This document shows, piece after piece, positions 9,409-21,406 of a stretch of DNA of 64,000 bases. Source of the stretch: Nitrospirales bacterium. GTDB taxonomy: Bacteria > Nitrospirota > Nitrospiria > Nitrospirales > UBA8639. The position numbers and the translations under genes are program-made. The stretch spans positions 1,952,001 through 2,016,000 of the forward strand of contig OY820905.2 of NCBI GenBank assembly GCA_963555755.3, written 5' to 3'. Numbering within the stretch: the first letter of the stretch is position 1; the number at the start of each line of letters is the position of its first letter. A model generated the notes under the pieces. It did no database searches and was not told the origin of the DNA. It was given only the letters and a program-made list of their open reading frames with translations.

Positions 9409-9714
9409 TCAAAACCCGGCCTCGGTGAGTGCAATTCGAGGAGCCCTTCGTAATCCTTTAATCTTTTCCTTCCGTGCTTGCCACAAGTCATAGCTTTGTT
9501 GCAGGGCCAACCAGGTCTCAGCCGATGGAGGAAAAACACGCTCCAGGCGAACAGCAACATCTGGAGTGACGGGAGCATGTCCATGACAGACGCGGGACAG
9601 CATCGCTCGACTAAGCCCTAATGCTTTCGCAGCTTCAGTAACTGTCCACCCGACCGATTTAATACAATCTTCCAAAATCGTTTCCCCGGGGTGCGGGGGA
9701 TTATGCATCCTCAT
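9409..9714 (-). CDS. higA: HigA family antitoxin
   Basis: MHNPPHPGE, HTH, WLALQQSYDLW. Confidence 0.9.
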   Translation of the reverse strand: MRMHNPPHPGETILEDCIKSVGWTVTEAAKALGLSRAMLSRVCHGHAPVTPDVAVRLERVFPPSAETWLALQQSYDLWQARKEKIKGLRRAPRIALTEAGF

Positions 9715-9726
9715 ATCTCAACTCCT

Positions 9727-10005
9727 TTAATGGTAGTCTTCATAATTCACCTTCCTGGCAGAACCATCCTCAAATTCAAACGTCACCCGGTAGTTCCCAG
9801 TGACCCATACCGCCCATGCGCCCTTTCGTTTCCCTGATAGTTCATGCAACTTCCAACCGGGCACCCTCATATCATCCAAGGTTCTCGCCAGAGATAATTG
9901 ATGCAAAATCCTTCTAATCTTAGGGACTTGCTCTGCGGGAAGACCTCGCGTTGAACCCCGATCAAATAGCCATTTCAACCCCCGATGCTTAAAATCTTCA
10001 ATCAT
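9727..10005 (-). CDS. higB: HigB (RelE/ParE family) toxin
   Basis: MIEDFKHRGLK...PGWKLHELSG...VTGNYRVTFEF...YEDYH; toxin-first gene order. Confidence 0.9.
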   Translation of the reverse strand: MIEDFKHRGLKWLFDRGSTRGLPAEQVPKIRRILHQLSLARTLDDMRVPGWKLHELSGKRKGAWAVWVTGNYRVTFEFEDGSARKVNYEDYH

Positions 10006-10039: not shown

Positions 10040-10178
10040 GCGTTTTTTTTTGAGTTTTTCAATGAAGGGGAGCCGTGGAGAGAATATTTAAATGCAGGGT
10101 TTCGCCCCTGCAGACGAGGTCCTTTTGTTTCGGCAAAAGGACCCAAAACCATTTTCGCTCGTGCGCGGCCCTCCGGGT

Positions 10179-12756
10179 CAATGGCATTCGGTTTGGTTCG
10201 AACGAACAATCTGCCTTCTCTGTTATCAGCGGAACTGGTTGATTGATCAGGGCTTCTGAACCGAAGTCGCCCTGGTGTCCTTTTTCGCTTGACTTCTTTT
10301 CCGTCTTCTGAGAGACTATCCTCGATGAAGACTGTGGACACCTTACCCAAGACGACCTTTAGCGGGCGGCGGTTCACCCGCAAGCAGTTGGCGCAGGTCC
10401 AAGAAACCGTCCAGCTGTTCCCCCACCTGAGTCGGAAGGAATTGGCCCTCACCGTCTGTGAGCATCTCAGCTGGACCACGCCGACGGGCCACAACAAGAT
10501 TCATTCCTGTTTGACCTTGCTGACCGAGCTGGAAGCGCACGGGATCGTGACTCTGCCGGCCACGCGCCACAAGCGCGCGCCGGGACACCCCATCCCTGCG
10601 TTTCACGAGCCGCCCCCCACCGAGCCACTCACCGACACCCTCGCCGCCGTGGCCCCAATTACCCTGCACCGGGTGGTCTCGAAAGAGGAACGCGAGAGCT
10701 GGAAAGCCTACCTGCAGACCTATCATTATTTGGGCTATAAACACCCGATCGGGGCCCAGCTGGGCTATCTGGTGAGATCGGCCGCCCAGCCGTACCCGCT
10801 GGGCTGTCTGCTGTTTTCGGCCTCGGCCGCCTGGGCGCTGGCCCCCAGAGATCACTGGATTGGCTGGGACGTGACGCACCGGAGGAAGCTCCTGCCATTG
10901 GTGTTGCGCAATGATCGGTTTTTGATCTTTCCGTGGATTGACGTGCCGAATCTCGCCAGCCATGTGCTGGCGCGGGCCACCAAGCAGATCGGGGACGACT
11001 GGGTTGAAGTCTACGGTTATCGCCCGGTGCTGATTGAAACGTTCATCGATCCCTCCCGGTTTGCCGGGACCTGTTATCGAGCGGCCAATTGGCACTTCGT
11101 GGGCTACACCGAGGGGCGCGGGCGGTTTGGCTCAACGTCGGACCGTCCACCCACGACAAAAGAGATTTTTCTCTATCCGCTCCAACCCGACTGGCGCGCG
11201 TGCCTGACTGCCGGGCATCGAGCCGTCACGGTGAAGACACGCTATCGCAACGACGTGCGAGCCAGTCGCACACGGTCCGTCGGGGAAGGGTTTGTCGCCT
11301 GGTGGAAACAGGTGGTCCACATCCTCCACGACGTGGCGGCCCAGTACGATGACCAGTGGCGCGTCCGGAAACGGGTGATCGATTCCCTGATCCTGATGCT
11401 GTTGATCTTTCGGTTGGTGTCGTCAACCAACTCCCAAAGTTACGGCACCACCATTGATGACTTGTGGGACAGTTGCGACAACCTGGCGCTCGCGCTCCCG
11501 CAACCCCACAGCATCGCGCCGGCGTCCTTTTGTGTCGCACGTCGCAAACTGGACGAAGCCATTTTCCAGTCCGTCAACCGGAACATTCTGGACGCCTATG
11601 CCCCACACGACTCCAACGACACCTGGTTGGGCCATCGGGTGTTTGCCGTCGATGGCTCCAAGCTTACACTGCCCCGCGCGTTGCGGGCGTGTGGCTACCC
11701 CTTGCCCTCTGACAATGCACACTATCCTCAAGGGTTGCTGAGTTGCCTCTACCACCTCACGTCGCAAGTGCCCTGGGATTTCGACCTCGTCGCGCATGGC
11801 AACGAGCGACGGTGCGCCCTGCGGCACCTGGCTGTGCTGAAGCCCAACGATGTCGTGGTGTACGATCGAGGCTATTTCTCCTACGTCCTGCTGCATCAGC
11901 ACTGGACCGCCGGGATCCACGCCGTGTTTCGTCTCCAAGACAGCGGGTTCAAGGAGATTCAAGAGTTTTTTGCCGGCCCGGACACCGACACCACGGTCAC
12001 CCTCTTCCCCGCCGCACGCACGCAACGAGACATCCGGGCGGTCTATCCTGATCTCGCCATCATCCCGTTGAGCCTGCGGCTTCTGAAATATGAGATGGCC
12101 GGCAGCCGATTTTGCTTGGGCACCACCCTGGTCGGCCCCCAGCAGCGGTATCCGCTCCAGGAGTTCATGGATCTCTACCATGCCCGTTGGGGCATCGAGG
12201 AACTCTACAAGGTGAGCAAGCGCCTGTTCCTCATCGAGGAGTTTCATGCCAAAACCGAGCGCGGCGTCAAACAAGAGCTCTTCGCGCATTTCGTCCTGAT
12301 CACCATGAACCGGCTGTTCGCCAATCGGGCGGACCACGCACTCAATCCCGAAGCCCCCGCAGCTGAGCCCATGGCCCCTCCCGGATCGTCCATAGTTGGA
12401 ACCGGCACCGGGGCGAGGCGGACATTCAAGACCAACTTCAAACATTGCCTTCACGTGTTTGCGCGAAGCTTCGAAGATCTGCTCGTGCTCCATGCTCGGA
12501 TGCAGACCGCCGTCCAACGGGCCTTCGAGTCCATTGTGAGTCACTACCAACGGGTGAGGCCGGGCCGATCCTATCCTCGAACATCCATGAAACCGGAGTC
12601 CACGTGGCATCCACCCAAAAAGAACAGCCAGTCCAAGAACCCCACAGGGTCGATGGCCTCTATCTGAAAGTCCCTTAAGCACATGGAATCCGTTTCTTAA
12701 ACGAATGAGCCAAATCCTTAAACGAATGCCGCCCATTCCTTAAACGAATGCCATTG
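10179..12756 (+). mobile_element. IS4-family element carrying a DUF4338-fused transposase
   Basis: TIR CAATGGCATTCG/CGAATGCCATTG; 10-bp target duplication CCCTCCGGGT at 10169-10178 and 12757-12766. Confidence 0.92.
10325..12667 (+). CDS. DUF4338 (DruA-like) domain + IS4 family DDE transposase fusion
   Basis: N-terminal YHYLG, RDHWIGW, RFLIFPW, NLAS, ETFID..RFAGTCYRAANW; C-terminal AVDGS, YDRGY, YHARWGIEELYK (IS4 YREK). Start ATG 10325 or TTG 10289. Confidence 0.88.
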   Translation: MKTVDTLPKTTFSGRRFTRKQLAQVQETVQLFPHLSRKELALTVCEHLSWTTPTGHNKIHSCLTLLTELEAHGIVTLPATRHKRAPGHPIPAFHEPPPTEPLTDTLAAVAPITLHRVVSKEERESWKAYLQTYHYLGYKHPIGAQLGYLVRSAAQPYPLGCLLFSASAAWALAPRDHWIGWDVTHRRKLLPLVLRNDRFLIFPWIDVPNLASHVLARATKQIGDDWVEVYGYRPVLIETFIDPSRFAGTCYRAANWHFVGYTEGRGRFGSTSDRPPTTKEIFLYPLQPDWRACLTAGHRAVTVKTRYRNDVRASRTRSVGEGFVAWWKQVVHILHDVAAQYDDQWRVRKRVIDSLILMLLIFRLVSSTNSQSYGTTIDDLWDSCDNLALALPQPHSIAPASFCVARRKLDEAIFQSVNRNILDAYAPHDSNDTWLGHRVFAVDGSKLTLPRALRACGYPLPSDNAHYPQGLLSCLYHLTSQVPWDFDLVAHGNERRCALRHLAVLKPNDVVVYDRGYFSYVLLHQHWTAGIHAVFRLQDSGFKEIQEFFAGPDTDTTVTLFPAARTQRDIRAVYPDLAIIPLSLRLLKYEMAGSRFCLGTTLVGPQQRYPLQEFMDLYHARWGIEELYKVSKRLFLIEEFHAKTERGVKQELFAHFVLITMNRLFANRADHALNPEAPAAEPMAPPGSSIVGTGTGARRTFKTNFKHCLHVFARSFEDLLVLHARMQTAVQRAFESIVSHYQRVRPGRSYPRTSMKPESTWHPPKKNSQSKNPTGSMASI

Positions 12757-12913
12757 CCCTCCGGGTCCCTCCGCCTCCGCCCGGAATAAGATGGCGAGGG
12801 AACTCGCTCCGCTCAAACAGCCCTCGCCGAGAGGCCGATTCGGGGCTGCGGCTCCGCCGCACCCAACGCGGAGCCCCAAGAACGAAGCAGGAATTGAAGG
12901 AGCAACCTTTGAT

Positions 12914-13050
12914 TGTCATTTCGAGCGAAACGAGAAATCTCTCCCCATTGCCGAACGAGAGATTTCTCCCAAGAATCGAAATGGCAAAGGAGGGGTTTAA
13001 ATGACAGAGGGAAAAACCTGGATTCCCGATTACTACTGTCGAGAATGACA
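12914..13050. repeat. REP-like palindromes (GTCATTTCGAGCG..AGAAATCT / GGATTCCCG..GAATGAC types)
   Basis: Inverted pair at 12914-12986; related units at 13018-13050, 24118-24149 and 50378-50457. Confidence 0.65.
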
Positions 13051-13120
13051 GAAAAGATTAACAGGCCTCGACTTAACAAACCTTTTTCACGCATTCAAAA
13101 TATAGAAATGTCCCTTCTCT

Positions 13121-13500
13121 GCCGCCTTCGTGCGCGGCGGAGCCGGAGCACCGAATCGACTTTTTGGCGAAGGCTGTTTGAGCGGAGCGAGTTCCTGAGC
13201 CATCTTAGGGTTCGCGCAAGAACAACTTCCCCTGTTTGGATGTCGATCCATCCTGTCTGGCGGCGTTGCTCGTCCTTTCCATACGAGGAGTATGCGCAAT
13301 CCTCTCGCCTTGCCAAACAGGCGTCTCACCACCCAAACAGGGGAAGTTGTTCTTGCGCGAACCCTGATTCGGTGCGGAGGCGGAGGCATCCCGGAGAGCC
13401 TGCTTCGGAGCAGGGTCGGAGGGACCGCGAACGGGCGAAAATGGTTTTGGGCACTTTTGCCGAAACAAAAGGGACTCGTCGCGCGGGGACGACACCCCGC
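13121..13500 (-). repeat. family D repeat interrupted by family A MITE
   Basis: Matches 55673-55866 with an insertion at the TTA of gagccatcTTAttcgg. Confidence 0.85.
13208..13364. mobile_element. 157-bp MITE, family A
   Basis: ~33-bp TIR GGGTTCGCGCAAGAA(T/C)AACTTCCCCTGTTTGG; six copies, all 157 bp. Confidence 0.85.
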
Positions 13501-13510
13501 TATTAATAAA

Positions 13511-13987
13511 TCACTCCTCTACCCAAGACACTGGGTCACCAACAAGGATCTCCCCATCATCCAAGACCTCACCAAACGCGCCACCGGCCCAAGATTCCGC
13601 CATGGCCTGTTGCAAGCCAGGCAAAGTCTCCTCCATCCGTTCACAGGGTTTCGTCTCGCCTAACATCCTGATTCGGCACCGTCCGATCAAAAGAATTTGC
13701 TTGCGGCATTGAGTGAGACTCAGGCCACTGATCAACAAATTGGCACGCCGAGCAGACGGAGATAAAGGACCTTGCACTTCACGCATCAATCGATCCCACA
13801 CCTCACGCTCAATGATGGTGACCTGACGCCGACCCCCTTGGTTCGCATTCCCCACCAAACCAGCATCTCGTTCCAGCGTGGCATGTTCCACCGAATCCAT
13901 GGGCCCACGCTTCATTCGCTTGATCCAGATGGCTTCAAGTTTTCCCGATAGTGGTTGGACTTGTTCACCTGAAAAAAGATCCAACAC
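13511..13987 (-). CDS. MOSC domain-containing protein
   Basis: RQVTII, RRANLLISG, ETKPCERM, GEILVGD. Confidence 0.88.
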   Translation of the reverse strand: MLDLFSGEQVQPLSGKLEAIWIKRMKRGPMDSVEHATLERDAGLVGNANQGGRRQVTIIEREVWDRLMREVQGPLSPSARRANLLISGLSLTQCRKQILLIGRCRIRMLGETKPCERMEETLPGLQQAMAESWAGGAFGEVLDDGEILVGDPVSWVEE

Positions 13988-14085
13988 GCACCTCCGATCT
14001 CACTTGATTTTATTCATAGCCTATTCAATCATTGCACTCCAATAGTCAATCAAAGTTCCCAATAAGCCACGCATCGTCAAGGGGA

Positions 14086-14232
14086 GGGAATGTTCAGAAA
14101 AGCATGCCCTGAGTCTTTCCGAAGGGTCTCGTCCAGCAAGGCCGCAGCCCTTTTGACGCGCGGAGCGTACTCTCAGTACGTGAGCACGGCAAAAGGGCGA
14201 GAACGCCGCTGGCGGCTTTTTTCAACATTCCC
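14086..14232. repeat. MITE family B copy containing an empty IS110 target (14102-14115)
   Basis: TIR gggaatgtt/aacattccc; internal GCATGCCCTGAGTCTTTCCGAAGG. Confidence 0.85.
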
Positions 14233-14383
14233 ATTCACGCGAATCCCACTGAGGGTGTCCCAGCGGGGTTATGTCTACATTTCTCACAGAATTTTTGACT
14301 CAACCCAACTTGGAGTTCTATATTGTCTTATGAGAACCGATCACAGGCAGGGACACTGTATCGCAGATCAGGCACGGAGGGAA

Positions 14384-14914
14384 ATGGTGAGTCGCGCAAG
14401 AACATGGATACTCGCCACGGCATGTGCTATGGGCAGTCTCGTCTTCCCAGCCACTGTCGTGAGAGCCGAACACCCCACGCTCACTGATACCCCCTTTGAA
14501 CAAATGAAAACCCTCATCGGCACATGGCAAGGTACCAGAAAAGCCTATGATGGTGAGGAAACCATCACCGCACGATATGTATTGACGGCAAAAGACAGTG
14601 CCGTGATGGAGAAATTATTTCCAGGCACCTCAAAAGAAATGCTGTCGATATATACACAAGAGGGCCACACTCTGGTGATGACGCATTATTGCATGCTCGG
14701 CAATCAGCCTCGAATGAAAACCCATGGGCAGACCCCATCAGACACCATTACCTTGACCTACTTTGATGGGACCGGCATGCGGTCCATGGATGATATGCAC
14801 ATGCATGAACTGACCATCACCTTCATGGATGAAAATCATATGACTCACCATTGGACCCTGTTCGACAAAGGGCAAAAAAAAGTGGCCCACACCTTCATGT
14901 TCATTAGGCAATAA
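14384..14914 (+). CDS. putative secreted protein of unknown function
   Basis: GGAGGG RBS before ATG 14384; signal peptide ending VRA; THYCMLGNQPRM and HMH motifs. The ORF-track 5' extension derives from the repeat. Confidence 0.7.
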   Translation: MVSRARTWILATACAMGSLVFPATVVRAEHPTLTDTPFEQMKTLIGTWQGTRKAYDGEETITARYVLTAKDSAVMEKLFPGTSKEMLSIYTQEGHTLVMTHYCMLGNQPRMKTHGQTPSDTITLTYFDGTGMRSMDDMHMHELTITFMDENHMTHHWTLFDKGQKKVAHTFMFIRQ

Positions 14915-15018
14915 TTCAGAAAGCTTGATCATTCACTCCCTCTCAATCAACCCAATAACCGTTCACCGTCCTTCTCCATTTAGGACTTCTCTATTCAACA
15001 CATGGCTCTGGCCCACTG

Positions 15019-15825
15019 ATGAAAACCGAACTTGAAGTTGCCTTGGAAGCTGTCCACCGCGCGGGAACACGTGTCTTACAACTTGCCGACCAAGGATTCG
15101 AGACACATCGAAAAGCTGATCACTCGCCCGTAACATCAGCCGACCTTGCCGCCAATGACATCCTTCGGGAAACCCTGATGAACCGCTTCCCCAACGATGG
15201 CTGGATGTCCGAAGAAAGTCCCGATACGCCGGAACGTCTCAACACATCTCGTGTATGGATCATCGATCCCATCGATGGCACTTCGTACTTTATAAAAGGT
15301 GTGCCGCAATATTCCATTTCCGTTGCCTTGGTGGAAGACCATCAACCGATTCTCGGGGTCGTGTACAATCCAGCCACGGAGGAATTATTTTCGGCTGAAA
15401 AAGGAAAAGGGTTATACTTGAATGGGAAACCAGTCGAAGTCGATCAATCGGTCAGCGAACGTTTAACGATCCTCGTCAACCCTTCTCGTTTGGACCGTCA
15501 CGAGTTCACCATTTTCAAAGATCTCGCCACCCTTCAACCGATGGGATCTATCGCCTATAGTTTAGCACTCGTTGCTGCGGGGCAAGCCGATGGTACAATC
15601 AATTTTGACCCATTACACGAATGGGATATCGCGGCAGGCTGGTTGTTAGTCCACGAAGGCAAGGGCATGGCAACAGACTCTACGGGAAACCCCCTCCGAT
15701 TCAATCAACCCGACCCCATTTCTCGCGGAATCCTTGCGGCGCGGTCCGGCGCAGGAGAACCCTTTGACGCACTAGTTGCAAGACGTCTAAAAACCCAGCC
15801 TGAATCCCCCCCTACAAGGAAATAG
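15019..15825 (+). CDS. inositol monophosphatase family / CysQ-like phosphatase
   Basis: SPVTSAD, SEE, WIIDPIDGT, EWDIAAG. Confidence 0.9.
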   Translation: MKTELEVALEAVHRAGTRVLQLADQGFETHRKADHSPVTSADLAANDILRETLMNRFPNDGWMSEESPDTPERLNTSRVWIIDPIDGTSYFIKGVPQYSISVALVEDHQPILGVVYNPATEELFSAEKGKGLYLNGKPVEVDQSVSERLTILVNPSRLDRHEFTIFKDLATLQPMGSIAYSLALVAAGQADGTINFDPLHEWDIAAGWLLVHEGKGMATDSTGNPLRFNQPDPISRGILAARSGAGEPFDALVARRLKTQPESPPTRK

Positions 15826-16318
15826 ATTCAACAAGAGACCAGTCCCGCAGATGAAGGGATTCGGCTCGAATGAGTTTCAATTCATTCGCAAGAAATGTTT
15901 TGGGAAAATCAACAGGGAGGGAAGCGATGACCTCTCGCTTCGCAGTTTCGGGAAAGAGGCCATACAGCAAACTAACATGTGGACGAAAGGGTGACACAGG
16001 CGTTTTGCCGAAGATCAATTTTGCCTCCTCATGCGCGTCACGAATTTCTGGCGTGTCTTTCACGGTGAAATACACACAGCGAAAATATTCGTCTTCATAG
16101 GTAGGTTGTTGGAGGTGAACCACAAAAGGAGTGAGCCTTTTTGCCAACTCAATGACTTGTTCAGAGAGAATGGATTCCTCTCCTTCGAGTTCTCCCAAGA
16201 GCGTGATATGGGGTTCAAATTTTGGTCCTCGATACTGATCGCTTAAAGTATTGATAAGGTTGGCAAGGCGATTACGGGAATCTCCATTTGGCGTGAGCCA
16301 CAAATGGTACTGAGTCAT
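15812..16318 (-). CDS. 2H phosphoesterase (cyclic phosphodiesterase / 2'-5' RNA ligase family)
   Basis: Two HxT/S motifs: PHITL and PHVSL. Confidence 0.85.
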   Translation of the reverse strand: MTQYHLWLTPNGDSRNRLANLINTLSDQYRGPKFEPHITLLGELEGEESILSEQVIELAKRLTPFVVHLQQPTYEDEYFRCVYFTVKDTPEIRDAHEEAKLIFGKTPVSPFRPHVSLLYGLFPETAKREVIASLPVDFPKTFLANELKLIRAESLHLRDWSLVESISL

Positions 16319-16998
16319 TCTTCTTGCTCTCCTAACGCTTCAATACACCGAGGGTCGTCAAATCGTGCGTTATTGACTAAACGACTCACCGGATTCGCCA
16401 CCATTTCTTCAGCCGGATAGGACACGAGAAGGGTTGCCAGCCGCACCACATCTTGTTGGTCCGGATCGAGCCAATCATCATACGCATCCGGATTCAAAAT
16501 AACCGGCATGCGGTTATGAATAGGCGCCATCAACGCATTGGGTTCGGTCGTCAACAGGGCACATGTTTCAATCGTTTTTCCATCAGCACTCGCCCAATGA
16601 TCCCACAGACCGGCAAAGGCAAACGGCCTTTCGCTTTTCAAGCGAATATAGTACGGCTGTTTGACTCGGCCCTCCTTCTGCCATTCATAAAAGCCATCCG
16701 CCAGCACCAGGCATCGCCGCTGTTTGAACGACTTCCGAAATGATGGCTTCTCTGCAACGGTCTCTGCCCGAGCATTAATCAACTTCATCCCAATGGCGGG
16801 ATCTTTGGCCCAAGATGGAATGAGTCCCCAGCGTAATATGCTTCCTTCGCGCGTTGTCGAACCAGATGTTATTCTTACACAGGCCACGAGTTGCGATGGT
16901 GCAATATTGTATCGAGGTTTAAGGTCCGATAATTCCTCAAAGTGGAATTGATCAGCCACGACATCAGGTGTAGTTTTTAACGTGTACCGCCCGCACAT
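16315..16998 (-). CDS. SOS response-associated peptidase (SRAP/HMCES/YedK family)
   Basis: N-terminal MCGRY, RYNIAPSQ, INARAET, FYEW, IHNRMPVIL. Confidence 0.95.
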   Translation of the reverse strand: MCGRYTLKTTPDVVADQFHFEELSDLKPRYNIAPSQLVACVRITSGSTTREGSILRWGLIPSWAKDPAIGMKLINARAETVAEKPSFRKSFKQRRCLVLADGFYEWQKEGRVKQPYYIRLKSERPFAFAGLWDHWASADGKTIETCALLTTEPNALMAPIHNRMPVILNPDAYDDWLDPDQQDVVRLATLLVSYPAEEMVANPVSRLVNNARFDDPRCIEALGEQEE

Positions 16999-17099
16999 AG
17001 GATAAACTTGCTCCTGTCATTCTCCATCAATATGTAATGGATTCACCCCGAAAAGGACTCTAAAAAAGAACGGCGGCAATCTCAAGAAGAAATGGAGAC

Positions 17100-17663
17100 A
17101 TGCTTATGAATAGATCATTCCCTTCCCTCAATCGGCAACATGTCATGGTGGCCTGTCTTATTGGGTTTTTTCTATTCATTTGGGTGCCATCTTATCTCCA
17201 CGCCCAAACCGGCATCCCTGCCCCAGACATCTCCAACGAAGTCTGGCTCAATTCCACACCACAACAAAAAATGAAGGATTTACGCGGCAAGGTTGTCATA
17301 GTCGAGTTTTGGACCTTCGGGTGCTACAACTGCCGCAACATCGAACCCTACGTCAAAGAGTGGCATGCCAAGTACGCGGACCAAGGCTTGGTCGTCATTG
17401 CCATTCATTCGCCGGAGTTTAGCTTCGAGCGATCCATCAACAGCGTCAAGGAATATATCGACGAGCATGAGATTCAGTATGCCGTGCCGATTGATAATGG
17501 GTTTGAAACCTGGAGGAACTATCGGAATCGCTATTGGCCTACACTGTACCTCATCGACAAACAGGGAGTCATTCAATATGTCAAAATTGGCGAAGGTGGG
17601 TATCCGGAAACGGATCGACAGATCCGCCGGCTCCTGGCAGAAAACGATTCGCCGTCATCCTGA
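17100..17663 (+). CDS. redoxin (DipZ/TlpA-like) exported thiol-disulfide oxidoreductase
   Basis: FWTFGCYNC, HSPEF, RYWP, GEGGY. Confidence 0.88.
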   Translation: MLMNRSFPSLNRQHVMVACLIGFFLFIWVPSYLHAQTGIPAPDISNEVWLNSTPQQKMKDLRGKVVIVEFWTFGCYNCRNIEPYVKEWHAKYADQGLVVIAIHSPEFSFERSINSVKEYIDEHEIQYAVPIDNGFETWRNYRNRYWPTLYLIDKQGVIQYVKIGEGGYPETDRQIRRLLAENDSPSS

Positions 17664-17717
17664 TGGACGAAGTCGCTCATGTCTCGGGCCAAGACAACCC
17701 AATATATTCCATTCGCA

Positions 17718-18932
17718 TCACTCATCACGTTTCACTTTCGAAAGAAGAGTCGCCGGCTGAATGGCTTGATCACCGAAACGGGATCGGATCGCATCCACCG
17801 CTTTCGTGACTTGGGCTTTGGGTTCCTCAGCTGAAGAAAACAGTGCCAATTGGCGAGAGCCCTCGGGCTTGAGAAAATTGGACCCCGCAACCCCTAATAA
17901 CCGGGCTTTCTCATTGGCGCAGGGCAGACGAGCGAGTAACGTGAGCGCCACGTGATACATAATCGAATCCTGGTCCGTTGGTTCCTGAAGAGTGATCGAA
18001 CGAGTGTAGGTCTGAAATTTCGAGGTGCGGAATTTCAATGTCAGAGTTTTGGCTTGCACACCCGCTGTCCGCAAACGACTCCCTACCCGTTTCGCTAATT
18101 CCAAGATGGTTTTGTGAATCATCTGAATCTCTGACGTATCGTTTTCAAACGTCGTTTCCGCACCAATGGATTTTTCCGGTTTCTCTGGTGCCACCTCGCG
18201 AGCATCAACCCCATTCGCCAATTCCCACAGATGCTTTCCTTGTTTTCCTAACCACGTCGAAAGGTCTGCACAGGATGCCTCGGCCAATTGCCCAATGGTC
18301 TCATACCCGCGACGACGAAGCAGATTCGCCGTCTTCGGACCGGCCCCCCACAACCGTGTAATCGGCAGGTCATGAAGAAACGCGCGCGCCGTGCCATCAG
18401 GCACGATGACGAACCCTTGAGGTTTCTGAAGATCCGATGCCACCTTCGCGACAAATTTCGTGGTCGCCACACCGACCGAGGCATTCAAATGCACTTCCTC
18501 CCAAATGTCTCGTTGAATTTGTGCACCAATGGCTTGCGGAGTGCCAAATAGACGAAGGCTTCCTGTCACATCAAGAAACGCCTCATCCATACTCAACGGT
18601 TCAACCAAATCCGTATAGCGGCGAAAAATGGAAAAAATGTGCGAGGACACTTCTTGATACCGCGCCATCCGAACAGCCAGGAAAATGCCGTGAGAACACC
18701 GACGATACGCCTGCCCAATGGGCAAGGCCGAATGAATACCAAACTCCCGCGCCTCATACGAAGCCGCAGACACCACACCCCGCCCCTTGCCCTCCTTGGG
18801 ATCCGCACCGACAATCACCGGCTTCCCACGAAATTCTGGATGATCACGCTGCTCCACGGATGCATAAAACGCATCCATATCCACATGGATAACCCAGTGA
18901 GTCGGCTGTTCAGTATGAGGGCCTTGTTCCAT
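17718..18932 (-). CDS. dinB: DNA polymerase IV
   Basis: HVDMDAFYASVE, SYEAREFG, SMDEAFLD, ASDLQKP, KSIGAETTF. Confidence 0.95.
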   Translation of the reverse strand: MEQGPHTEQPTHWVIHVDMDAFYASVEQRDHPEFRGKPVIVGADPKEGKGRGVVSAASYEAREFGIHSALPIGQAYRRCSHGIFLAVRMARYQEVSSHIFSIFRRYTDLVEPLSMDEAFLDVTGSLRLFGTPQAIGAQIQRDIWEEVHLNASVGVATTKFVAKVASDLQKPQGFVIVPDGTARAFLHDLPITRLWGAGPKTANLLRRRGYETIGQLAEASCADLSTWLGKQGKHLWELANGVDAREVAPEKPEKSIGAETTFENDTSEIQMIHKTILELAKRVGSRLRTAGVQAKTLTLKFRTSKFQTYTRSITLQEPTDQDSIMYHVALTLLARLPCANEKARLLGVAGSNFLKPEGSRQLALFSSAEEPKAQVTKAVDAIRSRFGDQAIQPATLLSKVKRDE

Positions 18933-19006
18933 GACACGCATTGTAGGCTCAGGAGAGAAAAACCAAAAGAGGGGAGCAATCGATGAGGAAAACTAATCAA
19001 CCCTTA

Positions 19007-19185
19007 GGGCCTGTTAAAAGATAACCTGCACAAAATCGCCCCTGGATTTGGGTCGATTTGGACGTAACGATTGAGAAAAAGCCGAGACATTGCACCGCCA
19101 TGTTGAGGCTTTTTCGATTGAGGCGCGTTCAAAGGTGACCCGAAGATGGGATGGGATTTTGTCCAGGTTATTTTTTAACAGGCCC
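19007..19185. mobile_element. ~180-bp MITE, family C
   Basis: TIR GGGCCTGTTAAAA; TTA on both flanks; further copies at 26986 and 46986. Confidence 0.85.
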
Positions 19186-19428
19186 TTAGTTGGAACTGGG
19201 TGGCTCAGGGAAGAGCCGCCATTCGACTATTGACCGGCGGGATAATTCCTGGCGTTTCTGTAGTTTGAGATGAAATTGCCAAGCATAAAATTCCTGATTT
19301 TCCTGGAAGGTCTCCAGGAACTTACTTTCATGCTTGAAATCGTTTTTGACAGTCGCAATGGGAGTCTTCGGAACCATGACTCATTATAGCACATCCTTCC
19401 TCATTCATCAGCCCCTTAACCGCATTCT

Positions 19429-21332
19429 CAGGGCCATTTCATTCTTTTTATAAGCAAGGGATTCCATGAGGTTTTTTGTGCGCTCTTTTTCAGGGCAGGG
19501 CCATGCGGATGGCTAAATGGGGCTTGCCCCAGAGCAGTCTACACGCCTGCGCGATATTGGTGTAGCCTTTCAGGCGTAAGAGACTGATGGCATAGCGTCT
19601 CAGACAGGTCATGACCATTGGGCCATTGAGACTTCGTATCTGACTCCTGTCTTCATCAAAGGTGACGTCCAACACATAATGCTGCTTATTCTCCACACTC
19701 CAATGCTTTCGGTTTTGCGAGAGGATGGTCTTCGGCCCCGCCTTGTCTTTGGACTGACTCGTGACACCGCAGACCGCTTCGACGGTCGTGAGGCCCTGCT
19801 TGAGATGCGTCACTTCCCTCTCAATGCAGAAGACTTGCTGGACATGAGGAAAGTTGACATAGGCATTCAGGGAGTCATCGCACCAGATCCTGCGGGTCGT
19901 GATCTGCCCATGGCCTTTCTCGGTGGTGGCATAATCGCACCGGCGTGCTCGCAACGCTAAGGCCTCAATGTCGTGCTTCAAGGTGGGCTGGTTTCCCTTG
20001 ACGGTGAAGACGAAGTCGGCGCCGCGTTCGTGCACCAGGTACTCGGCAATCTCTTTCTGGGTGAGGAGCGCATCCGCCGTGATCACCTTCCCTGCGATCT
20101 CGAGCGCATCTAACAGGGGCCGCACGCAGGGGATCTCATTGGTCTTGGAGTGAACTTTTTTTGGGTGAGGTGGCGCCCGGCTTGATGGGTGACGGCGCTG
20201 AGGACGTGGGTCTGTTCGCTTGGGACCTTCGACGTCCCCCGCATGGTCTTCCCATCAATGGCAATGCCCTGATCCTCCCCGCCGAAGGTGTCCAGCCACC
20301 GGCCGAGCAGGGTATCGACTTCACAGGGGTCGACGGCCGTGATAAAGCGGTAAAGAGTGCTGCGGCTCGGGACGAGGTAGCGCCCCCCTCGCTGAGTACA
20401 GCCTAGCCGCTTGCGCATCGGCTGCGATAACTGCTGGGCCCAGTCCGAGATCGCTTCATAGCCGCGCGCGCCGCACAAGGTGGCACAGAACATGATCGCC
20501 GTGAGGGCGCGTCGGGTGTGCCGTTGCCCTTGCAAATGGCGGGGATCGGTCAGCTGCACCACATACGTAAAGAGGGAGTCCGTCTGTTTTGTATTCAATC
20601 TCATCTGAGGCGCTTCTCCTTTCTGATAGGGCTGATCAAGCATCGGGCGTGCAAGGATCTCTCGGGCTTGGGGATGCAGCCGCACGACTAGGATGCGCTT
20701 CGGTCTCTCATGCTGAACATAACACGTGTTCGACTTGCGAAACCCTCGTGTCAGACCGAGCTCGTGCCACCCGGCGGCCCGATAGCAGGTCCCGGTGAAG
20801 CGGGCAGGATCGACGAAGGTCTCTAAGAGGAGCAAGGGGTAGCCGTGGTACAGTTGCCAATCGGCCGAGATCCGTTTCGCGCAGAGCGACAGGACTTTCG
20901 AGGCGAGGTTCTTTTGCGAACAGCCCGGCAGCATGAGAAACCAGGTGTTGTTGGCCAGTAAATGGAGTCGTTGCCATTGAAAACAGGGGGGCCAGCCGAT
21001 CCAGTGGTCTCGCGGTCTCGATTTGAGGGCCGCCGCCGCAAACACCAGCAAGGCCAGCCAGCGATCCTGCACACAGGCGAGATATTGTATCGATTGGCCA
21101 ATCAGCGGGGCATGACCGAGGTAGTGGTGTCTGTCGAGAAGGGTCTTGAAGGCGTCCTTTTCGTCTCGGACAATTGGGCGAACCACGACTTGCCTCAGAT
21201 CAATGTCCGGCTGTCCGCTTGGCGATTCGTCTGGCATGCAAAAGAGTATGCCGTAAACGAAAAGAAAAAGCCAGCCTAAATCGATTATTCCTTATTATCT
21301 ATAAAGTTACACTTTAATATGAAATAGCCCTG
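19429..21332 (-). mobile_element. ISAs1-family element carrying a DUF4338-fused transposase
   Basis: TIR CAGGGC(C/T)ATTTCAT; 9-bp duplication CCGCATTCT at 19420-19428 and 21333-21341. Confidence 0.9.
19490..21237 (-). CDS. DUF4338 + ISAs1 transposase, split in two frames by a -1 shift at A-AAA-AAG (20161-20155)
   Basis: ORF1 20110-21237: HHYLG, RDHWIGW, ETFVD..FTGTCYRAAGW, DPRH..G.RH, IAIDGKTMRG. The -1 frame continues KVHSKTNEIP..TADALLTQ..HWSVEN..LDVTFDED to 19490. Confidence 0.85.
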
Positions 21333-21406
21333 CCGCATTCTTCTTCTGGATTCCTCCTTCCTGCCGCGGCACTACGAACAAGAAACCCTACCTCCTCCCT
21401 GAACTC

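Follow-up and report, generated by a model that had tools for sequence, protein, structure and literature searches.

What is a domain filed under the name of a defense-system protein doing at the front of two different transposases? The question is raised by a 64,000-nucleotide stretch of a Nitrospirales bacterium genome (GenBank assembly GCA_963555755.3, contig OY820905.2, positions 1,952,001 to 2,016,000; hereafter the window), in which an IS4-family and an ISAs1-family insertion sequence (IS) each encode an N-terminal domain of family PF14236 (DUF4338), the family of Druantia DruA. Simple ISs are thought to carry little beyond a transposase. The extra domain is predicted from structural models to have a GNAT fold, with the phage Mu DNA-modifying protein Mom as its closest solved structure. 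Tentatively, we propose that it is a tRNA-dependent DNA acyltransferase that would help its element upon entry into a new host. The IS4 element is laid out as follows.

10179..12756, forward strand: IS4-family element, 2,578 bp.
10169..10178: left copy of the 10-bp target duplication CCCTCCGGGT, inside a REP-like repeat; right copy at 12757-12766.
10179..10190, forward strand: left terminal inverted repeat, 12 bp, perfect; partner at 12745-12756.
10289..12667, forward strand: 792-residue fusion open reading frame (helical N-terminal domain, Mom-like GNAT domain, IS4 DDE transposase).
10325..10558, forward strand: N-terminal three-helix domain of the fusion protein, helix-turn-helix-like by secondary structure only and matching no Pfam family.
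10649..11212, forward strand: Mom-like GNAT domain, with H146, Y147, R210, S224, D254, and Y263 all intact.
12696..12750, forward strand: three copies of CTTAAACGAATG at the right end, at 12696-12707, 12717-12728, and 12739-12750.

This element belongs to the IS4 family by its DDE transposase, its terminal inverted repeats (termini CAATGGCATTCG / CGAATGCCATTG), and its target duplication. The probable start codon of the fusion frame is the ATG at 10325; PF14236 covers residues 110-281 (E 2e-36) and DDE_Tnp_1 residues 447-671, with the catalytic triad at D455, D526, and E637. The frame scores 153.8 bits against the NCBIfam IS4 model NF033592 (cut-off 115), and Tn5 is the top fold match of the transposase portion. 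The CTTAAACGAATG repeats, which have tandem counterparts at the ends of homologous IS4 elements, are likely transposase binding sites. The genome holds 11 full copies, all on contig C1 and at least 99.9% identical, and one more cut by the end of contig C2. Exact 10-bp duplications flank 7 of the 11, poly-G runs two, and no exact duplication the other two.

19429..21332, reverse strand: ISAs1-family element, 1,904 bp, with ends matching at 13 of 14 nucleotides.
19420..19428: 9-bp target duplication CCGCATTCT; other copy at 21333-21341.
20110..21237, reverse strand: first open reading frame, 375 residues, with the Mom-like GNAT domain and DDE_Tnp_1_assoc, ending before most of the catalytic core.
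20650..21207, reverse strand: Mom-like GNAT domain, with H38, Y39, W99, S113, D143, and Y152.
19490..20161, reverse strand: DDE core, in the -1 frame.

The second element belongs to the ISAs1 family by its PF13808 domain and DDE core, its terminal inverted repeats, and its 9-bp duplication, within the 8-10 bp range of the family. PF14236 spans residues 14-167 of its first frame (E 1.3e-26), and NF033564 scores 151 bits on the second. A first-pass annotation, made from the letters of the window, had reported intact ends and target duplications for both elements; these hold at the same coordinates, with 10 bp for IS4 and 9 bp for ISAs1. The N-terminal DUF4338 domain it described is likewise present in both with the motifs it quoted, YGY reading HGY in ISAs1. 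Its description of the two transposases as unrelated is overstated; both match PF01609 and are therefore distant relatives, and the window does not contain the distant partners, IS66 and ISKra4.

Structural comparison carries the case for Mom. The AlphaFold2 model of the IS4 domain, built from a 107-sequence alignment and for the domain alone since the full-length model was poor over the second half of the GNAT region, reached a pLDDT of 92 and a pTM of 0.87. Foldseek placed Mom (8bv8) first (E 2.3e-6, TM score 0.60) and RimI next (2.2e-5). Structural realignment gave Mom a Z score of 15.5 (165 aligned residues, root-mean-square deviation 3.3), with 13.3 for the next structure, and a Foldseek-free search of 48,161 chains again returned Mom first (Z 15.3 versus 12.9). 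In a wide structure search, all 50 of the matches listed were GNAT or acyltransferase folds. Profile-profile comparison with a 13-sequence Mom alignment gave a probability of 96.6 (E 5.4e-10). Together with the aligned active-site residues, these results bear out the resemblance to the GNAT-fold Mom family that the first-pass annotation had drawn from a motif.

Mom moves glycine from tRNA to adenine in double-stranded DNA, and H58, Y59, R111, S124, D149, R151, and Y159 are its active-site candidates, according to the available part of PMC13219725. In our profile alignment, which is not a residue-level superposition, IS4 residues H146, Y147, R210, S224, D254, and Y263 pair with Mom H58, Y59, R111, S124, D149, and Y159; six of the seven named residues are thus matched in IS4 and five in the window's ISAs1, with R151 unpaired. 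Canonical GNATs carry a glycine-rich coenzyme A loop, in place of which the IS domain has NLAS or NSES; Mom, likewise, departs from the typical loop. The IS domain is built like Mom, as modeled, yet is not classed as Mom because R151 and a helix-turn-helix-like insert (residues 175-209), both essential in Mom in the available text of PMC13219725, have no counterpart and because the window's proteins fall below the cut-off of the Mom family PF25680. Against that cut-off of 27.1, the IS4 domain scored 13.5 bits and the ISAs1 domain gave no match; it was passed by one of three IS4 homologs tested and by 2 of 98 representatives. The phage Mom profile phrog_1384 matched the window's domains at E 1e-4 and 0.0095, and sequence searches of the PDB with the domain returned nothing significant.

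The same comparisons bear on whether the target could instead be a protein or tRNA, for instance a host silencing, repair, or defense factor whose acylation would ease transposition in many hosts. RimI, SpeG, and Naa-type acetyltransferases come next after Mom (Z ~13), the proposed DNA-binding insert of Mom is missing, and a DUF4338 domain fused to DndF is seen as a GNAT that may target proteins in the accessible portion of PMC10853773. We nonetheless consider this unlikely, as the Mom-specific residues are kept, the typical coenzyme A loop is absent, and Mom stood clear of all other GNATs in three structure searches.

How widely is the domain carried? A six-frame profile search of the genome matched 76 stretches, all inside IS copies: 47 ISAs1-type (three of them fragments), 14 IS66, 13 IS4, and 2 IS50/Tn5-type. 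The IS66 copies encode the domain as a separate gene immediately ahead of the transposase. In the IS50-type copies (L031:2781-4757), HP replaces HY and the 5' end is seemingly interrupted by another repeated element. Among 1.84 billion representatives, 6,315 clusters at 50% identity match the domain at E ≤ 0.001. The ISAs1 domain PF13808 occurs in 79 of the 98 proteins of at least 300 residues that were scanned among the best 150 of these 6,315. IS4-side searches found PF01609 in 118 of 120 among the matches listed, and a profile search of longer proteins gave 112 Tn5-type, 6 IS701-type, and 2 partnerless proteins among the 120 matches listed; these partner counts describe the top matches that each query gave and are no measure of proportions within the family. 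In two phyla, loci from 30 of 201 and 38 of 251 genomes bring in IS66 and ISKra4 as further neighbors, often with the domain as a separate gene beside the transposase, and a single-protein scan of the genome collection added three loci. The domain therefore has four IS carrier types in this genome and six across genomes, and is fused to transposases in four lineages. An N-terminal region of similar length to that of the IS4 protein precedes the GNAT domain in IS66, IS50, and ISKra4 forms; the window's ISAs1 has none. Distribution is patchy; ISAs1 DNA was found in one of six other genomes of the genus and in none of 54 more distant relatives. In a single case, possibly a chance join (P0275), the GNAT and ISAs1 N-terminal domains are joined to a Dam-type adenine methyltransferase.

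The first-pass annotation spoke of the same domain in both elements, recruited independently. The IS4 and ISAs1 domains are homologous (38% identical over 200 columns, E 5e-31), and no similarity was found outside the shared domain when the IS4 protein was compared with the first ISAs1 frame. The two nonetheless fall in separate subclades. In a quick, unrooted tree of 108 domains, fused IS4 (16 rows, support 99), IS50 (23 rows, 96), and IS701 (11 rows, 99) each form a single group, ISAs1 stands apart, and stand-alone IS66 and ISKra4 genes are scattered along the backbone; carrier labels change 15 times, versus 69 after shuffling. On a similar tree thinned to 44 rows, leaving out unlabeled rows and L119, the data reject both a single clade of IS4 and ISAs1 domains (p-AU 0.02) and a single IS66 clade (p-AU 0.002). 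Repeated association with different IS families therefore stands, whereas independent recruitment gives way to a history that fits one IS-borne clade passed among IS families and fused several times; unrooted trees do not show the donor.

The name DruA invites a defensive reading, and the first-pass annotation had linked the domain to Druantia. Here the evidence runs the other way. PADLOC DruA1 models gave E 0.01 for one of the window's proteins and no match for the other. PF14236 matches occur in 30 of 201 genomes of the phylum, and four of these proteins are full-length, stand-alone forms of ~400 residues that match DruA1 at E 1e-82 to 1e-181. The IS domain is homologous to stand-alone DruA (profile probability 94.7), and the HY, NxR, LAS, and ETFxD residues are absent from the stand-alone DruA protein displayed in the alignment; a four-sequence stand-alone DruA profile, which is shallow, did not match Mom. 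In type I Druantia, druA lies within druABCDE alongside DruE, a DUF1998 helicase, as given in the available part of PMC7251935. The DruE domain PF09369 (DUF1998) has no match in this genome, which is 99% complete (a control was found in 8 of 14). The window's IS-borne domains are not Druantia.

A side observation concerns four genomes of one genus (L008, L009, L012, and L013), in which a GNAT gene with the N-terminal helical domain is fixed beside a DUF3443 gene, syntenic at 70-83% identity; no transposase was found within ~1.5 kb of it in these four genomes. Such apparent host capture at a fixed site, the homology to stand-alone DruA, and the frequent occurrence of a separate gene beside IS66 or ISKra4 would suit elements that owe their persistence to an anti-phage action of the enzyme, in line with the PF14236 label. 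We regard such defense cargo as quite improbable given that DruE is lacking, true DruA is without the HY, NxR, LAS, and ETFxD residues, all 76 stretches in the genome sit in IS copies, and repeated in-frame fusion to transposases is not what cargo would be expected to show.

Is the domain catalytic, and does the element need it? A natural variant in the window speaks to both.

20941..20943, reverse strand: ISAs1 codon 99, encoding Trp where the family residue is Arg (equivalent of Mom R111).

At the position aligned to Mom R111, 392 of 392 homologous stretches, taken from 390 proteins, have Arg, as do all 77 metagenomic IS4 loci that cover the position, out of 80 loci found by their DDE motifs; the DDE triad itself is conserved in 80, 80, and 79 of the 80. 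Trp99 is carried by 9 of 33 near-identical ISAs1 copies. Eight of these are identical over 1,904 bp and lie at eight sites with target duplications at all eight, making the Trp99 form, with 8 of the 31 ungapped copies, the most frequent haplotype. Because its copies show no internal variation, the haplotype is probably the youngest burst. An assembly error is unlikely, as eight copies combine Trp99 with a second marker at a distance of 1.46 kb. Contigs from public sequencing runs, which show the letters that occur and cannot give allele shares, have the window's letter in X9 and the Arg letter in X1, X8, and X11. The available text of PMC13219725 reports R111 and S124 of Mom as essential, with R111A dead and R111K drastically reduced; by analogy, the Trp99 allele is predicted to be inactive.

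Given eight Trp99 copies at eight duplicated sites, the simplest reading seems to be that catalysis is unnecessary in cis for spread within one genome, and the lineage argues against a requirement for the domain in cis for transposition. Other routes may have served, namely enzyme supplied in trans from ~60 intact copies or gene conversion. Over longer times, purifying selection acts on the domain as it does on the transposase; among six in-genome ISAs1 variants, the ratio of nonsynonymous to synonymous substitution rates is 0.23-0.27 for the GNAT domain and 0.16-0.26 for the DDE core. The domain is probably active as an enzyme. A non-catalytic module that binds nucleic acid or a host factor and aids target finding or assembly by the transposase could account for the continued multiplication of a copy without the key Arg and for transposase fusion in four lineages; it is very unlikely, since residues of active-site type vary no more than the DDE triad, the carriers differ in their targets, and the domain is often a separate gene.

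The ISAs1 protein raises a further point, because its gene is broken after the GNAT domain at a conserved site.

20155..20161, reverse strand: slippery heptamer A_AAA_AAG, kept in 36 of 36 full ISAs1 copies.

The genome contains 36 full-length ISAs1 copies at 85-100% identity, 27 of them with a 9-11 bp duplication. A -1 shift at the heptamer restores a stop-free, 582-residue GNAT-transposase in eight of eight variants tested, and a second ISAs1 type in the genome has its reading frame broken at the same place. An assembly error is rejected by conservation of the break across variants of 85-100% identity. Several ISAs1 homologs of ~590 residues are in frame without the break, and no strong frameshift stimulator was found near the slip site. 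Judged from these features, a conserved -1 slip site divides the transposase, and the element counts as a predicted programmed -1 frameshift IS. According to the accessible portion of PMC3711429, transposase genes are known to use A_AAA_AAG for slippage, at low shift rates. Because the conserved slip site splits the transposase, the short GNAT-bearing product would be expected to outnumber the full transposase. ISAs1 contigs occur in RNA runs X8 and X9, and such presence is no sign of transcription. Four head-to-tail ISAs1 pairs with one target duplication between them lie near 89417-93234, 987418-991234, 1120295-1124112, and 4163783-4167523 of the genome's main contig (G000:C1).

An excess of the short product is also what a self-limiting enzyme might show, one that modifies the element's ends, promoter, or transposase and lowers transposition, so that dead variants are hyperactive cheats. 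Dam methylation lowers transposition of IS10 and IS50. The Trp99 form, being the largest haplotype and probably the youngest burst, and the purifying character of long-term selection also suit such a brake. We still judge it improbable: acting in trans, it would still hit the Trp99 copies (from 24 Arg99 sisters and 26 intact IS4 and IS66 copies), an end motif common to the families is absent, and one burst is a single event.

Could the domain steer the elements to particular sites, or mark their ends? IS4 insertion sites are G+C-rich, and 5 of the 11 copies lie in a REP-like repeat that covers 0.27% of the genome and is represented in the window.

10113-10178, 12767-12860, and 13134-13480: REP-like palindromic repeat, ~80-90 genome copies.

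Flanks of homologous IS4 elements are G+C-rich too and often palindromic. At ISAs1 sites, tested 12-22 nucleotides from the junction, TTGAC lies 15-19 nucleotides away at 12 of 36 sites, versus 2.4% of random positions, with the qualification that some sites are tandem and so not independent. This box resembles a sigma-70 -35 element, faces away, and is absent from the window's own site; it suggests promoter-guided targeting by ISAs1, as is known for TnGBS/ISLre2 elements. IS66 sites are mostly A+T-rich (eight sites listed). Because targets differ between carriers, the domain sets no common target, and target selection by it is rejected. The first-pass suggestion that the domain marks element ends gains no support from the one end motif that the two elements share, in which 16 of 18 nucleotides, loosely IHF-like, are common to their right ends (12677-12699 and 19451-19473). 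The motif suggested a common binding site but is rejected as a feature of the family: variants within the genome show it drifting, IS66 ends lack it, and only 3 of 76 homologous IS4 ends match it at ≤4 mismatches. The match is probably chance. Of the neighboring genes, a HigB-like toxin with a helix-turn-helix antitoxin (9409-10005) lies just left of IS4, and an SRAP-family gene and a DinB/Pol IV gene (16315-18941) lie between the two elements.

What job remains for the domain? In the mechanism that we propose, a Mom-type GNAT is carried by several IS families as a fusion or a neighboring gene. The enzyme likely transfers an acyl group onto DNA bases, the donor probably being a charged tRNA, and DNA bearing the element, once modified, would escape restriction on entering a new host. 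Copying within a genome would not require the enzyme in cis, and intact sisters there could also provide it in trans; inactive variants could then spread locally and would be purged across host jumps. DNA is the probable substrate, though we hold this less firmly than catalytic activity, and protection on host entry may be the purpose. We favor the host-entry reading because it fits deep conservation, local dispensability, patchy distribution, and the anti-restriction role of Mom, which in the available text of PMC7261163 protects against more than 20 restriction enzymes. As a whole, the proposal of a DNA acyltransferase that depends on tRNA and aids its element in entering a new host is provisional, at somewhat less than an even chance.

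Several observations weigh against that proposal. R151 has no aligned equivalent, the Mom insert at 175-209 corresponds in the profile alignment to a gap of ~26 columns in the IS4 domain, sequence identity with Mom stands at 16%, and common acetyltransferases of proteins or small molecules trail Mom by only ~2 Z. Vehicles of transfer seldom carry the domain (2 of 72,556 plasmids, 0 of 50,697 phages, and 5 IMG/VR loci, in collections biased to other hosts). The DUF3443-adjacent gene looks host-captured, suggesting a use at the level of the host. E. coli dies when Mom is overexpressed, according to the same part of PMC7261163, and with such toxicity the presence of ~60 intact copies is difficult to explain unless the enzyme acts locally or within tight limits. 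Fusion to a transposase suggests a local, transposition-linked job, and a brake on transposition would explain the Trp99 burst just as well.

Part of this picture is already known, as DUF4338 is called a GNAT in the available part of PMC10853773 and the fusion is present in automatic database names. Literature searches, which did not cover supplements, found no paper that describes IS transposases with DUF4338, DruA, or Mom domains, although Iyer et al. 2009/2013 on Mom homologs may mention them; nor was any paper found on the Mom likeness of DUF4338. In environmental bacteria, very large IS lineages routinely carry this conserved domain, a relative of an enzyme from the small set of known DNA hypermodifiers. 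It also has a practical side, since the database label "Druantia protein DruA" on the IS domain can inflate counts of defense systems. If the domain does modify DNA, it would bring a new base modification and a layer of counter-defense or self-control to IS biology. The broadest version, slightly more doubtful than the proposal above, is that thousands of IS lineages with at least six transposase types share a dedicated tRNA-dependent DNA-hypermodifying enzyme, whose epigenetic mark, of a new base chemistry, protects or controls mobile DNA, and that a cheater allele here spreads on enzyme from sister copies. With matched natural Arg99 and Trp99 alleles and four carrier types, this genome makes the question directly testable.

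Set against known systems, the IS domain shares with DruA of type I Druantia the PF14236 family, the RD.WIGW segment, and the C-terminal strand; it differs in covering only profile positions ~36-224 of 297 and in lacking the DruB-E context. The DUF4338 domain fused to DndF is the same domain, likewise seen as a GNAT possibly acting on proteins; there the context is a defense (conflict) system, with a proposed role as protein co-effector, and the available part of that treatment mentions neither ISs nor Mom (PMC10853773). With phage Mu Mom (PF25680, phrog_1384, PDB 8bv8), a tRNA-dependent DNA adenine aminoacyl-transferase, the IS domain has in common the GNAT fold, six residue equivalents, the lack of a glycine-rich coenzyme A loop, and carriage by a transposing element, whereas its RDxWIGW helical insert and its fusion or coupling to IS transposases are its own. 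Like ordinary IS4 and ISAs1 elements (NF033592 and NF033564), the two in the window have terminal inverted repeats, 9-10 bp duplications, a DDE core, and many identical copies; unlike them, they carry an extra N-terminal module of 190-300 residues.

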